64,000 bases of DNA from Escherichia coli (GTDB lineage: Bacteria > Pseudomonadota > Gammaproteobacteria > Enterobacterales > Enterobacteriaceae), in assembly GCF_003018255.1 (NCBI RefSeq), contig NZ_CP027440.1. The stretch is one strand, 5' to 3'. Under the pieces are notes generated by a model that searched no databases, had not been told where the DNA came from, and was given only the letters and a program-made list of their open reading frames with translations. Numbering within the stretch: the stretch's first letter is position 1; each line of letters begins with the position of its first letter. Below, piece by piece: positions 1,049-56,502 of the stretch. Position numbers and translations under genes: made by a program.

Positions 1049-2443
1049 CTACTCCCTCCGTTCCGGCAATCTAAAGTTAATCTTTTCCACATTAACAATA
1101 TGGTGATTAATCCTGTCGATATCGACAGAGCTTTGTCCTTTTTCATTCACCGCATGAACATTTGCAAGAGACAGGAGTGTTTCTTTTTTCGCCATAAAGA
1201 CACCTCGTACGTCTTTGCGCATGTCGAAGTTCATGCTCAGTGCGGGTCCAACAGTGGATTCCTGCATCACATTGATATTTCGCATAAAAAGATGTTGCGG
1301 TTTATTGTGAAGCTCCAGCGACGCACGCTTCATCTCAATGTTAGTCAGCGCCACAAAGGAGACAGCATTCCCGGCAGAGATTTGGATGCCGCGCAATTTA
1401 TAAGCAAGGTAGGTGTTATCCAGTTGAATATTATTCACCCGGAAATTCTGCGGTATCGAGAGATATTTGCCTTTAATTACCCCATAACCGATTAACATCC
1501 CGGCGCTATTAATCATTTCAATATTATCAATCACGAAATTGTCACAACCGTAAATAGCGACTGTCGCGTTATCAATGCCTGCTTTCTTACTGAAATCCGG
1601 TGTGATATTGCGGGCCTTGATATTACGAATAACAAAATGTTTACCATTTTCAACATGGATCAGTTGCCGACAATCCGATCCCGTGATATTCGCCACGACA
1701 AAGTTTTTCACTGCCTGGTTTTCCGGATAATTATTATCGTAGGTACTTCCCGCAAGGCCTATGCCGATGCCCCAGTTGATTTTGCCGTTGGTACAGTTAA
1801 TGCGCTCAATGAGATGGTCGGATATCAAAATATCACTGTCGTTAATCGCCACGTTCCATTCAATAGCGTCGCCCTGTAAGTCGCTGAACTTACAGTTGGT
1901 GATGTTGGCACCGATTATCTGGTTATGAAATCCCTGGCGTAAGATGGCGTAATTAGCGTGGCTAACGTTCAGGTTATCGATGGTCAGGTTACGCATGACC
2001 CGTTTGTTTTTGCCGCCGATATAAATCTGCGTTACCGGGCCAAAGCCGCTCATCGCAAGCCCTTTGATGGTGCAGTCAGAGCCGCGCACATCCAGGGTGA
2101 TGTTATGCATACTGCCGCCCTCCTCCCCTGTCACCTGGCTGCCGTCCTGTAAGACAAATCGCCCTCTGCCATTGCCGCGCAAGCTTCCAAGGATGTGTAA
2201 CGTTTTGCCAGGAGGAATGAAGATGCCGGTGTTGATATTGTCACAAACGAATCCAGCAGGCACGACGATCGTTCGCCCTTCGCTGAAGGCTTGTTTAAAT
2301 GAGGCGATCCAGTCGTGTGGGTTGTAGTCGTTAATGTTAACGCTTTGTCGGGCGGGAAGTGCGCGAGCGAAAGGGGTATGGAGGAAGGCAAGCGCCGAGC
2401 TTGCCGTCAGGAAGGTGCGTCGGGAGAGTTTTTTAAATGGCAT
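1049..2443 (-). CDS. wcaM: colanic acid biosynthesis protein WcaM
   Basis: 464 aa ORF with Tat-like signal ([15 protein letters not shown]); last gene of cps cluster in expected position. Confidence 0.9.
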
Positions 2444-2453
2444 GCGTTCTCCT

Positions 2454-3674
2454 CTATAAAGCTTGCAGCAAGCTGGCGAGTTCTCGATTGATCACCTGCT
2501 GGTTAAAATCGTGTTCGACTTTTTCGCGAGCACGTTTGATAACCGGAGCCAGTTCGTCGGTGTCCAGTTGGCTAAACGCCGCCAGTCGTTGCGCCAGTGC
2601 GCGAGCATCGTTCTCAGGCACCAGCCAGCCGGATTTATCGGCCTCCACCAGTTCCGGTATTCCGCTATGCAGAGTAGAAACCACCGGAATGCCGACCGCC
2701 ATCGCTTCCATTAGTGCCACCGGAATACCTTCCATATCGCCGTCCGCACCTGTAACCGATGGCAACAGGAAGACATCCGCGTCGTCGAGCATCGCCTTCA
2801 CTTCATGGCTCGGTTTAAAGCCCGGCATCTCTATCACATCTTCCAGTTGATATTGTTCGATGAGGGTGCGCAGGCGTCGTTCCCACGGGCCAATGCCGAG
2901 GATGCGATAGCGAAATGCCACGCCCTGCTCTTTCAACTGACGGCAGGCTTCGATCGCCACATGCAGGCCTTTTTTCTCGGTTAAGCGTGCGACGGAAATG
3001 ATTTCCAGCGGTATTGCGGGCGCTTTCACCGGACGCGGGCTAAAGCGCGTCATGTCCACGCCCATGCGCGATACAGCGATTTTTTCCCTCGGGCAGCCCA
3101 TTTTTTGCAGCCTCCCGGCCCACAGATCGCTTATCGGTAGCATCAGGTCGCCACGGCGGAACAGTTGCTGATATTCGGGAGTGTAGTGGTTGAGCACTTC
3201 CCGACTGGAGATATCAATACCGTGGAAGATAGTGGCAATTTTGCCGCGAATGATACCCAGTTCGCGTAGTTTTGCTGCGGTTACCCCCGCCGGGCCAAAA
3301 TGAGCGATAAAGACATCGGCATAAAATGGTGTTGCGACCTGACCACAAATGGCAGACAAAATCAGGTTCCGCGACTCGGCACCATAGCGTTTGAGGTTGA
3401 GCGCCTGCCAGGTATTTTTACGATGAATGCCGCGTAAGGTCTGGCTGGCGCGGTGGCGCAGCTTCGCCACTTTGCCCGTAGGTTCGTCCTGTAACCAGCG
3501 GGTTCTGGCGGCAAGGTTGTATTTCGTCCATGCCGCGTGGGTGTTCTCTGTATCGCCTTTTTGCAGCGCGACAATCTCCACCTCAAAGCCCATATCAATA
3601 AACGCAGTGATTTGGTTGAGGACGAAGGTTTCCGACGACAACGGAAATTTCAGTAAAAAGAAGCCGACCTTCAT
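2454..3674 (-). CDS. wcaL: colanic acid glycosyltransferase WcaL
   Basis: 406 aa ORF, GT4-type glycosyltransferase; 4-bp overlap with wcaK stop. Confidence 0.9.
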
Positions 3675-53167: not shown

Positions 53168-54529
53168 ATGTTTAAACCGGAACTCCTTTCCCCGGCGGGA
53201 ACGCTGAAAAATATGCGTTACGCTTTCGCTTATGGCGCAGATGCTGTTTATGCGGGCCAGCCGCGTTACTCCCTGCGTGTGCGCAACAACGAATTCAACC
53301 ACGAAAATCTTCAGCTCGGCATCAATGAAGCCCACGCGCTGGGGAAAAAGTTTTATGTCGTGGTCAACATTGCACCGCACAACGCCAAGCTGAAAACCTT
53401 TATCCGTGACCTGAAACCGGTGGTGGAAATGGGGCCGGATGCGCTAATAATGTCCGATCCAGGGCTGATTATGCTGGTGCGTGAGCACTTCCCTGAAATG
53501 CCGATCCATCTCTCGGTACAGGCTAACGCCGTGAACTGGGCGACGGTGAAATTCTGGCAGCAAATGGGACTGACCCGCGTGATCCTCTCTCGCGAGCTGT
53601 CGCTGGAAGAGATTGAAGAGATCCGCAATCAGGTGCCAGATATGGAGGTAGAGATCTTCGTTCACGGCGCGCTGTGCATGGCCTACTCTGGTCGCTGCCT
53701 GCTCTCTGGCTACATCAACAAGCGCGATCCGAATCAGGGCACCTGCACTAACGCCTGCCGCTGGGAGTACAACGTCCAGGAAGGCAAAGAAGATGACGTT
53801 GGCAACATCGTACACAAGTACGAGCCAATTCCGGTGCAAAATGTTGAGCCGACGCTGGGTATCGGCGCACCAACTGACAAAGTGTTTATGATCGAAGAAG
53901 CCCAGCGTCCGGGCGAGTATATGACCGCGTTTGAAGATGAGCACGGCACTTACATCATGAACTCGAAAGATCTGCGCGCCATCGCCCATGTAGAACGCCT
54001 GACCAAAATGGGCGTGCATTCGCTGAAAATCGAAGGTCGTACCAAATCTTTCTACTATTGCGCACGCACCGCGCAGGTTTACCGTAAAGCTATCGATGAC
54101 GCCGCTGCGGGAAAACCATTCGATACCAGCCTGCTGGAAACTCTGGAAGGTCTGGCGCATCGTGGCTATACCGAAGGTTTCCTGCGTCGTCATACTCACG
54201 ACGATTATCAGAACTACGAATACGGTTATTCAGTTTCTGACCGCCAGCAGTTTGTTGGTGAGTTTACCGGTGAGCGCAAGGGCGACCTCGCGGCGGTAGC
54301 GGTGAAAAATAAATTCTCCGTTGGCGACAGTCTTGAGCTGATGACGCCGCAAGGGAACATTAACTTTACCCTTGAGCATATGGAAAACGCCAAAGGTGAA
54401 GCTATGCCGGTCGCACCAGGCGATGGTTATACTGTGTGGATCCCGGTGCCGCAGGATCTTGAGCTAAATTACGCGCTGCTGATGCGTAATTTCTCCGGGG
54501 AAACCACGCGTAACCCCCACGGTAAGTGA
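53168..54529 (+). CDS. yegQ: U32-family peptidase-like protein YegQ (tRNA hydroxylation protein TrhP)
   Basis: 453 aa ORF (MFKPELLSPAGTLKNMRYAFAYGADAVYAG...). Confidence 0.9.
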   Translation: MFKPELLSPAGTLKNMRYAFAYGADAVYAGQPRYSLRVRNNEFNHENLQLGINEAHALGKKFYVVVNIAPHNAKLKTFIRDLKPVVEMGPDALIMSDPGLIMLVREHFPEMPIHLSVQANAVNWATVKFWQQMGLTRVILSRELSLEEIEEIRNQVPDMEVEIFVHGALCMAYSGRCLLSGYINKRDPNQGTCTNACRWEYNVQEGKEDDVGNIVHKYEPIPVQNVEPTLGIGAPTDKVFMIEEAQRPGEYMTAFEDEHGTYIMNSKDLRAIAHVERLTKMGVHSLKIEGRTKSFYYCARTAQVYRKAIDDAAAGKPFDTSLLETLEGLAHRGYTEGFLRRHTHDDYQNYEYGYSVSDRQQFVGEFTGERKGDLAAVAVKNKFSVGDSLELMTPQGNINFTLEHMENAKGEAMPVAPGDGYTVWIPVPQDLELNYALLMRNFSGETTRNPHGK

Positions 54530-54561
54530 TTAATTTCGATTATTTTTCCCGGATGGAAAAT

Positions 54562-54583
54562 TCTTAGAAACCGATCACATACA
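54562..54583 (+). promoter_or_regulatory. candidate CRP site centred near -41.5 of the cyaR promoter
   Basis: Perfect TCACA half-site with the other half degenerate; -10 TATCAT at 54601-54606; CyaR is known to be CRP-activated. Confidence 0.45.
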
Positions 54584-54613
54584 GCTGCATTTATTAAGGT
54601 TATCATCCGTTTC

Positions 54614-54700
54614 GCTGAAAAACATAACCCATAAAATGCTAGCTGTACCAGGAACCACCTCCTTAGCCTGTGTAATCTCCCTTACACGGGCTTATTTTTT
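54614..54700 (+). ncRNA. cyaR: CyaR (RyeE) Hfq-dependent sRNA
   Basis: 87-nt sequence gctgaaaaacataacccataaaatgctagctgtaccaggaaccacctccttagcctgtgtaatctcccttacacgggcttatttttt matches recalled CyaR, including terminator hairpin and U-tail. Confidence 0.88.
54674..54700. other. bacteriophage P2 attB core (locI), unoccupied
   Basis: Reverse complement is AAAAAATAAGCCCGTGTAAGGGAGATT, the 27-bp P2 att core as I recall it; overlaps the CyaR terminator. Confidence 0.55.
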
Positions 54701-54870
54701 ATACATAAACCATAGAGACGGATTGATCCCAGGTCACCGTCTTCCATTGACCACATCGATAGAATCTCCCTTCATAGCACGATGCCTTTCACGTAACGGC
54801 ATCGTGCTCGCACAGGTTCCGGCTAAGCACAACCAGAACGCGGATGTTTGACGCTTACCAAAAAATATTC

Positions 54871-55188
54871 TCACTCTCCACATTTGAATGTCAGACGAGC
54901 GACGCCATGTAATCCTGCACCTTCTGTCTTCAGGTCAACTATCTGCATTTTTTTGCCCTGAGTAACACAGAAATGAACTGCATCATTTTTTACTATATTT
55001 TCTGCACCAGATATTCTACCCCTGGCTAAAGAAGCTTCGGCTTCGGTGTAGTATTGGTTATCGAGTTTACGCTGAATATTACTTTTATATGCAAGACCAA
55101 ATTTACCGATACTTGTCTCATCATTATGTACAGCACACCCAGACATAAGAAAAACACTAATTAATGATATAGCAGCTATCTTTTTCAT
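54871..55188 (-). CDS. yegR: small lipoprotein YegR
   Basis: 105 aa from MKKIAAISLISVFLMSGC (lipobox); track ORF extends upstream to 55248. Confidence 0.75.
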   Translation of the reverse strand: MKKIAAISLISVFLMSGCAVHNDETSIGKFGLAYKSNIQRKLDNQYYTEAEASLARGRISGAENIVKNDAVHFCVTQGKKMQIVDLKTEGAGLHGVARLTFKCGE

Positions 55189-55602
55189 CTCACCTTCCCC
55201 CATTAAATACCAACGACACGCTCTGGTGTTTAAATATAATAATGGCATGATTATTATAATTGAATAGGATTATAATAAATGTTCTGTACAACATTTCCTA
55301 CATAAGTAGGAATTACATACACGGATGCCCTTCCAGGTAACCCCATGGGGGGGTTAATATATTTTTAATAGTATATTGAAGATGCCACTGTTTAGTTGAA
55401 TATTAGGTATATGTTCTTTTTTGAAATTTACCGGTGGCTACCGTTAATATTCGCTGTTCCCATTGCAAGCTCCTGGTGGTAACCACTGAATCCTCCATAC
55501 TTGAACTGACTTTTTATCCTCCGACTTTCATCCTGTTCTGACTCCACCTTTTCTTTTCTGCTCTACACTATCTACAGTCCAATCATAAAGGCACATACGA
55601 TC

Positions 55603-56502
55603 ATGGCAGAATTTCCCGCCAGCTTACTGATTCTTAATGGCAAAAGTACTGACAATCTACCCTTGCGCGAAGCAATTATGCTGTTGCGTGAGGAAGGAAT
55701 GACGATCCATGTGCGGGTCACCTGGGAGAAAGGCGATGCCGCACGATATGTAGAGGAGGCACGGAAGTTGGGCGTCGCAACGGTGATTGCCGGTGGTGGC
55801 GATGGCACCATTAATGAAGTTTCTACGGCGTTGATTCAGTGTGAGGGGGATGACATACCCGCGCTGGGAATTTTACCATTAGGAACCGCCAATGATTTTG
55901 CCACCAGTGTAGGGATTCCTGAGGCACTGGATAAGGCGCTGAAACTGGCAATTGCCGGTAACGCCATTGCGATAGATATGGCGCAGGTCAATAAACAAAC
56001 CTGTTTTATTAATATGGCGACAGGCGGATTTGGGACGCGTATTACCACAGAAACGCCGGAAAAATTAAAAGCCGCGCTGGGTGGCGTCTCTTACATCATT
56101 CATGGCTTAATGCGCATGGATACTCTGCAACCGGACCGTTGTGAGATCCGCGGTGAAAACTTTCACTGGCAAGGTGACGCCCTGGTCATTGGTATTGGTA
56201 ACGGGCGTCAGGCCGGTGGCGGTCAGCAATTGTGCCCGAACGCGTTAATTAACGATGGCTTGCTGCAACTGCGCATTTTTACCGGCGATGAAATTCTTCC
56301 AGCTCTCGTATCAACCTTAAAATCTGACGAAGATAACCCGAATATTATCGAAGGCGCTTCGTCGTGGTTTGATATACAAGCCCCACACGAAATCACTTTT
56401 AATCTTGATGGCGAACCGTTGAGCGGACAAAACTTTCATATTGAAATACTTCCGGCGGCGTTGCGTTGTCGATTACCACCAGATTGTCCATTGTTGCGTT
56501 AA
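55603..56502 (+). CDS. yegS: lipid kinase YegS (DAGK-catalytic family)
   Basis: 299 aa ORF ([15 protein letters not shown]...GGDGT). Confidence 0.9.

Follow-up and report, generated by a model that had tools for sequence, protein, structure and literature searches.

The Escherichia coli DNA analysed here (the window, meaning the whole stretch of 64,000 nucleotides) has the primary P2 attachment site (attB 'locI'), complete and empty, inside the terminator of the small RNA gene cyaR, and the 810 bp of low G+C content that follow it (54701-55510, with yegR) are very probably the fossil of a P2-like prophage, in which attL, P arm, cargo, P' arm and attR can be made out in succession. This reading stands on homologies, boundaries, occurrence throughout the species and comparable remnants in related lineages, all of which are directly observed. 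It corrects an assumption made at the level of annotation, in that the 'empty' primary P2 site of E. coli would have an older P2-like prophage fossil beside it, and yegR, an orphan gene, would probably be leftover phage cargo rather than ancestral chromosome.

The att site itself is already known. P2 locI and the K-12 remnant were reportedly described by Barreiro and Haggard-Ljungquist in 1992, and cyaR/ryeE is established as a phage target (PMC3603311, citing Wassarman 2001). A species-wide fossil bracketing yegR appears to be an ordinary kind of feature that has apparently not been pointed out before; no description of a decayed P arm flanking locI was found in the literature covered by our search, which lay outside the primary P2 att papers. 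Nothing in these findings is unexpected for phage biologists. The features discussed below are collected in Table 1.

Table 1. Features of the cyaR-yegS interval and of the putative prophage fossil, in window coordinates
Feature	Coordinates	Strand	Basis or remark
cyaR (CyaR/RyeE sRNA)	54612-54697	+	Rfam RF00112, 100.7 bits, E 1e-20
P2 attB core (locI type), intact and unoccupied; doubles as attL core of the putative fossil	54674-54700	+	27/27 against P2 attP core
Inferred strand-exchange region CCCTTAC	54679-54685	+	attL/attR comparison in natural lysogens
Putative fossil P arm of a P2-like attP	54701-54761	+	blastn to P2 24293-24382, shuffles, alignment A1
Degenerate IHF-site region of the P arm	~54701-54730	+	alignment A1
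IHF-region 12 bp agagacggattg, missing in most E. coli	54714-54725	+	allele classes, alignments
Arm-type Int-site region of the P arm	54731-54758	+	alignment A1
12-mer aatctcccttca	54763-54774	+	direct orientation; core positions 1-10 matched
Hairpin, 10-bp perfect stem (gcacgatgcc, 11-nt loop, ggcatcgtgc)	54777-54807	-	64 nt downstream of yegR stop; no U-tract
yegR, 105-aa predicted lipoprotein	54871-55188	-	RefSeq annotation in identical or near-identical genomes; ORF open to 55248
Terminator-like hairpin taaccccatgggggggtta with T-run	55338-55366	+	upstream of P'-like sequence, within the putative fossil
Putative fossil P' arm (homologue of Cox-binding region, int to core)	55394-55488	+	local alignment, P2 L001 1412-1500
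Degenerate second att core (putative attR fossil) aatcctccatacttgaactgacttttt	55489-55515	+	18/27 core matches
Ancestral B' flank and yegS leader gactttcatcctgttctgac...	55516-55602	+	directly 3' of cyaR in other Escherichia lineages and genera

An intact attachment core in the cyaR terminator

The genes yegQ (53168-54529, +), cyaR, yegR and yegS (55603-56502, +) follow one another in this order. CyaR is recognised over its entire Rfam model (positions 1-85 of 85), with a score far above the gathering score of 47, and a scan for RNA families found no other family in 54500-55650. The att core sits within the cyaR terminator hairpin and T-run, where a terminator-like site covers 54665-54692 together with its T-run. 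The core sequence aatctcccttacacgggcttatttttt is identical to AF063097 24356-24382, annotated as 'attP' and 'Int attP core', with the plus strand of the window corresponding to the reverse complement of the P2 record; the statement of the initial annotation that the end of cyaR is the reverse complement of the P2 core was thus accurate. It was equally correct in holding the site to be unoccupied, since the stretch from core to yegR is collinear with the empty sites of other strains, and in describing a short interval between cyaR and yegR (54701-54870, 170 bp) that contains no phage ORF or gene. The locus as a whole is 100% identical to that of strain 2014C-3338.

When attL is compared with attR, both in a natural lysogen (L148/L149) and in E. 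albertii, the only place left for strand exchange is CCCTTAC (core positions 6-12), so that the lysogen junctions narrow the P2-family crossover to 7 bp. In these sequences (L148 ~1511; L149 ~12269, IMGVR_UViG_2778261513_000009; L010 8303) phage and host core disagree to the left and to the right of the heptamer, which is all that they have in common. With IHF on attP, a P2-type Int would carry out strand exchange in this heptamer, and the phage-borne copy of the core would replace the last nucleotides of cyaR and rebuild its 3' end, a replacement that would account for a present cyaR 3' end followed by a P arm.

The same E. coli flank follows the P' arm and core in many natural P2-like lysogens, showing the core to be in use, and the two halves of the locus lie more than ~0.7 kb apart in 856 of 5,423 genomes, for example in O157:H7, which has a P2-like prophage at the site. 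P2-like phages of later date have re-used the intact core repeatedly, leaving the K-12 ogrK remnant and the full prophages of ~16% of genomes. Judged from its sequence, the intact core should work as a high-affinity P2 attB, and the strain is predicted to be lysogenisable by P2 at this high-affinity site, like E. coli C and unlike K-12. The window shares with the P2 attP/attB (locI) system the identical 27-bp core, the location at the cyaR/ryeE 3' end and the orientation seen in K-12 and O157 (ogr side toward cyaR), but here the site is empty and its right flank bears a decayed phage P arm.

K-12 differs at this position, as had been noted in the initial annotation: alignment shows ogrK and a truncated gene D (a 3' fragment, 'yegZ'), 618 extra bp in all, and the fossil flank of the window lies downstream of the half core of this remnant. 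The right junction between D' and the half core (L002 2268-2300) falls inside CCCTTAC, and the intact form of gene D reads aa-ctccgcaac, a core-like sequence, at the K-12 junction point, which suggests that the remnant may have arisen by integrase-promoted recombination with a pseudo-core, not by random deletion. The K-12 remnant and the putative fossil share both the att site and the process, internal deletion of a P2-like prophage. The former is younger, near-identical to P2, equipped with phage genes and absent from the window, whereas the latter is older, has no phage gene and is common to the species.

A decayed P arm next to the core

A search of the cyaR-yegR interval against phage genomes by sensitive blastn reveals what the initial annotation overlooked, homology to the P arm of P2 starting directly after the core. 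Window positions 54674-54759 are 80% identical to P2 24293-24382 (E 5e-9), a segment made up of the core together with the IHF site and the Int site of the P arm, both annotated. With the core left out, 54701-54870 scores 38 against the P2 P arm, a value reached by none of 2000 shuffles (14.9 +/- 2.3), and lenient scoring extends the alignment to 104 columns (E 4e-12). The homologous arm measures 59-61 bp. In alignment A1, window sequence aggtcaccgtcttccattgaccacatcg (54731-54758) stands opposite the arm-type Int site of P2, tggtcacgtccacacattgaccacatcg, with one of its two arm repeats (ttgaccaca) intact and the other destroyed; the consensus of these repeats is tgTGGaCa on the other strand (PMC3448106).

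Across E. coli the flank falls into two length classes, 371 and 359 bp, and only 53 of 5,425 records are at least 99% identical to the window, which has the rarer, longer allele of the IHF region. This longer allele (54714-54725) is nearer to the phage arms, and a second long allele, gctgtaaatacggattg, is found in other strains.

Similarity between arm and flank gives no direction by itself, and phages that insert at the 3' end of an RNA gene do bring along gene ends taken from a host, so that P2 relatives might conceivably have taken up E. coli DNA from beside cyaR, making the flank the source of the arm. This reverse course is scarcely credible. The motif gaaataaa(a/t)ggatttatttc...gtccaca.attgaccacatcga is kept in P2-like IMG/VR phages with another core, aaaaaggctccctcaggagcttttt, and another site, which encode Ogr and gpD homologues as well as, at one locus, an Int homologue; no trace of it was found at the empty cyaR sites of Citrobacter, Enterobacter, Klebsiella, Kosakonia and others, and two Escherichia lineages likewise have empty sites without a P arm. 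Conservation of the motif among phages with another core, together with its absence from empty sites, argues that the E. coli flank is derived from the phage and not the reverse, and the P2 arm, moreover, contains annotated functional IHF and Int sites. A separate possibility is that the arm-type Int site of the fossil was retained because it functions, with an attL-like chromosomal site and an attP-like attR in lysogens modulating P2 integration and excision. In favour of such retention, a 27-nt run that includes the intact arm repeat, gtcttccattgaccacatcgatagaat, is invariant across 33 flank haplotypes; a run of this length is unremarkable, however, given ~20% variable columns (estimated p ~0.2-0.3), and selective constraint on the site was accordingly rejected. 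With one arm repeat destroyed, the IHF region deleted in most strains and a clean site with an identical core in one sister lineage (L126), retention for function is highly improbable.

The phages with core aaaaaggctccctcaggagcttttt, which is terminator-like, include a P2-like clade in IMG/VR (L178, L179, L209, L210) in which the P arm is conserved and ogr and the P arm are separated by 1.2-2.8 kb, possibly another cargo slot. The combination of an E. coli-type cyaR followed by the P2 P arm and the ogr terminator was also encountered on a 9.7-kb contig of a MAG labelled Collinsella sp. (L122, JAIJJM010000051.1), which is probably an E. coli contig mis-binned into that MAG.

A second core and the boundaries of the insertion

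Close to yegS lies a second, degenerate copy of the core in direct orientation, and of the 128,000 positions in the window, counting both strands, no others than this copy and the true core match at least 18 of the 27 core positions. By itself the degenerate core scores poorly under strict gapped scoring, and the adjoining P'-like stretch alone is weak, being matched by 116 of 3000 shuffles (p ~0.04). Taken together, the two score 19-22 against P2, whereas shuffles score 9-10 +/- 1.5 and none of 2000-3000 reaches the observed value (z 7.1-7.5); the pairing is also laid out in alignment A2. A duplicated cyaR was considered for 55444-55516 and rejected, the similarity to the 5' part of cyaR being at shuffle level (z 0.3); since similarity to the P2 P' arm and core rises above shuffles and that to the cyaR 5' part does not, this stretch is taken as attR.

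The boundaries emerge from a scan of the cyaR 3' region with one genome per species. Two non-coli Escherichia lineages (L126, L128), ~88-95% identical in the flanking genes, have the core followed by yegS within ~100 bp and no yegR, and BLAST joins window position 54700 directly to 55511; in other genera, too, cyaR is followed by yegS within ~100 bp. Thus, 54701-55510 is an insertion relative to these lineages and genera, and the attR fossil sits exactly where L126, L128 and E. albertii regain homology with the window, at 55511. It is still conceivable that the fossil was lost precisely in L126 and L128 instead of being gained in E. coli, but even such a loss would imply insertion relative to the other genera.

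The insertion is bounded by a direct repeat of the core, perfect on the cyaR side (27/27) and degenerate on the yegS side (18/27), and between the repeats the phage arms stand in the correct order and orientation, core-P ... P'-core. G+C content is 31-40% across yegR, compared with ~52% in yegQ and yegS. A tblastn search with all P2 ORFs of at least 40 aa found no P2 protein remnants in 54600-55650, and no cos similarity was found in the fossil stretch of the window. Between the yegR promoter region and the P'-like stretch, the terminator-like hairpin at 55338-55366, which has the look of a canonical intrinsic terminator, has no upstream gene on the plus strand.

The course of events suggested here is that a P2-like prophage entered the same core in an E. 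coli ancestor and that internal deletions removed most of it. What would still be recognisable is the P arm by the cyaR-side core (attL), yegR with its 3' hairpin, the P' arm, and, displaced and degenerate, the original core (attR) by yegS. Decayed islands at the 3' ends of tRNA, tmRNA and sRNA genes offer a close likeness, sharing with the window an intact repeat on the side of the RNA gene, by which that gene is rebuilt, a degenerate repeat at the far end, a low-G+C interior and repeated re-use of the site; the window differs in that its target is the terminator of an Hfq-dependent sRNA, not a tRNA, and in that both integrase arm regions are recognisable.

Comparable remnants in other Escherichia

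In E. albertii NBRC 107761 (L010 4930-8345) the same two boundaries enclose 3.4 kb, made up in order of an attL core and P arm (84% to P2), IS fragments, a cosR fragment (80% to P2 33587-33547), cdtA/cdtB/cdtC, and a P' arm with attR core (90.7% to P2 24430-24356). The E. albertii cdt genes lie inside a decayed P2-like prophage at the cyaR core, a remnant fresher than that of E. coli. The cos-proximal 'TO' region is a P2-like moron slot, occupied by cdt-V in O157 prophages (PMC6823313). As in the cdt-bearing P2-like prophages and remnants (cdt-V in O157, cdtABC in E. albertii), arms and cargo in the window would have outlasted the phage body, the boundaries are shared, and the cargo would likewise belong to the TO moron slot by cos. 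The window differs in that its putative cargo is yegR, encoding a small lipoprotein, and in that E. coli has no cos fragment and a far more degenerate attR.

In another lineage of Escherichia (L035), the core is followed by 71 bp of P arm, a cosR-like piece (matched by 4 of 5000 shuffles against P2 and 15 of 5000 against the E. albertii cos region), ~20 nt, and then a homologue of 54808-54850, the sequence just 3' of yegR. This arrangement indicates that the yegR side of the fossil adjoins cos, in the cargo slot, and that the lineages decayed through independent deletions. Among these related remnants, a cos fragment is found only in L035 and L010. A single hotspot thus presents a series of decay down to arms and cargo: sister Escherichia with a clean site, E. 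albertii with the cdt remnant, L035 with its cos piece, E. coli with the fossil, K-12 with ogrK, and strains with full prophages.

The 12-mer resembling the start of the core

A partial copy of the core in direct orientation, pointed out in the initial annotation, is indeed located at 54763-54774, and had been read there as a possible trace of a prophage once integrated and since lost. In spirit the idea of a footprint in this flank holds, given the P arm at 54701-54761 and the degenerate attR at ~55394-55515 that bracket yegR; the 12-mer as a scar specific to this strain does not. Of 5,426 complete E. coli genomes, 5,413 contain the 46-nt stretch around the 12-mer (54745-54790), 2,581 of them in identical form; occupancy makes no difference, the stretch being found both in lysogens with a P2-like prophage at the site and in K-12. 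This species-wide presence makes the 12-mer part of the old fossil, not a product of recent integration and loss in this strain.

The core-like part of this stretch goes no further than aatctccctt (+ca), and the match stops within the putative crossover CCCTTAC. Outside the core itself, neither strand of the 64-kb window has any other 10-mer in common with the core, and aatctccctt lies 62 nt away from it. About 2 such 10-mer matches are expected per 128 kb, so that the evidence lies in the position of the match and not in its existence; its proximity has p ~0.002 (within 100 nt, same strand), or ~0.02 within the 810-bp insert, and the match recurs in 3 of 2000 shuffles of the 60-nt region. After the first 10-12 nt, anchored and local alignments found no match to the right part of the core or to P-arm starts (K-12, window, common allele and 25 phage variants). 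Extended homology of 54760-54812 to P2 cosR, cosL, the ogr terminator, the L035 segment or the E. albertii sequence following its truncated P arm was considered and rejected, all comparisons being at shuffle level, so that the 47 nt 54760-54807 have no match among these. Variation at the 12-mer falls precisely on the two sites that correspond to core positions 5-6 (tc, ct, rare cc); as either of the major alleles can be found on 'long' haplotypes, the ancestral spelling is uncertain. The alleles of the attR fossil (ct, rare cc) parallel this pattern, and both sets fit an ancestral aatccccc, resembling the left half, of phage origin, of attR in E. albertii (tatccccctt).

Normal Int/Cox excision leaves no scar, and P2 excision is notoriously poor. 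A virgin attB with the 12-mer as footprint of a prophage integrated and then lost in this strain or its recent ancestors could draw on the exact 10-nt match to the core start, its 62-nt distance and its direct orientation. This account is barely tenable in view of scarless excision, of a flank that is already fossil, so that the site is not virgin, of the position of the 12-mer downstream of attR in current lysogens and of the K-12 remnant, and above all of its conservation in the species essentially regardless of occupancy. A relic of an old second att core is possible, if doubtful. The 12-mer would then be the left, phage-type half of an attR, produced by nested integration or by Int-promoted recombination with a pseudo-site, broken within the crossover, where the match stops (aatctccctt|ca). 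The K-12 junction between D' and the half core breaks in the same heptamer, showing that half-cores do arise at the locus, nested remnants exist at the cyaR site, and the alleles of 12-mer and attR fossil are compatible with the same ancestral spelling. The lack of likeness to the core-right or to any of 25 P-arm starts beyond 10-12 nt nevertheless weighs against a relic, as does the need for extra deletions, one of them ending exactly at the left edge of the core. In addition, an ancestral ct or cc would give a core match of only 8-9/10, which is not significant, and a single prophage is enough to explain the region, as L035 shows.

We lean slightly towards the 12-mer being a chance match, or else a diverged piece from a deletion junction such as the ogr-terminator arm aaaaagcccctc. 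The expected number of shared 10-mers is in keeping with this origin, as the whole window had been scanned, and so are the want of extended homology around the 12-mer and a polymorphism at exactly the matching positions. MAFFT alignment A1 places the 12-mer on the P2 ogr terminator arm with 10/24 matches, a similarity that is not significant, and against chance stand the proximity and direct orientation of the match and the allele parallels with the attR fossil. A broader proposal would have the fossil not inert on two counts, with 54731-54758 rendering the attB attL-like and the lysogen attR attP-like and so affecting P2 site preference or excision, and with the 12-mer being a half-core left by integrase-catalysed illegitimate recombination in CCCTTAC, as seemingly at K-12 ogrK; that both hold is very unlikely.

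yegR as candidate cargo

Within the preferred reading of 54701-55510 as an old P2-like prophage, yegR may be surviving cargo (a 'moron'), by analogy with the cdt genes. The gene has an atypical composition, lies between the attL and attR fossils, and is absent from the sister lineages with a clean cyaR-yegS junction. We infer its origin in the cos-proximal 'TO' moron slot, as we do the order of the deletions, and this step rests on position and analogy, since YegR occurs in no genuine phage genome and its homologues stand outside P2 contexts. In tblastn searches no genuine phage genome had yegR, the only matching phage records being those that include host flank. YegR also matches PHROG 21109, a match explained by such host flank in phage records and thus not independent evidence. 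A Pfam search found no Pfam domain in the protein. Homologues with 45-83% identity in other enterobacteria lie at unrelated chromosomal or partly IS-flanked loci, and YegR as a phage protein was rejected on account of the non-phage contexts of five divergent homologues. Knockout of yegR gave no phenotype in chemostats (PMC3708739), and a literature search found nothing tying yegR to a prophage origin.

The hairpin at 54777-54807 is probably a structure of the yegR 3' end, as judged from predicted folding. The minus strand of 54755-54875 folds at -41.8 kcal/mol (z -3.25), and in the predicted fold the complement of the 12-mer pairs with a U-rich stretch by the stop codon; the hairpin itself received no canonical terminator call. 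Two other identities were considered and rejected, a repeated element, the hairpin being single-copy in E. coli, and a phage element, its copies in IMG/VR being confined to the ends of predicted prophages that extend into host flank.

Many E. coli have an extra ~170 bp just 3' of yegR, at 54866/54867 of the window, with an annotated ORF of 41 aa (L003 3183-3352, L005). L035 has the long form at this position, and the short form of the window therefore looks like a further deletion in the fossil. E. coli is without the partner gene of yegR that is seen in other enterobacteria (L139 6001-6654, L136 169-816), where yegR homologues of 76-82% identity are followed by a co-oriented gene of 108-110 aa that belongs to no Pfam family.
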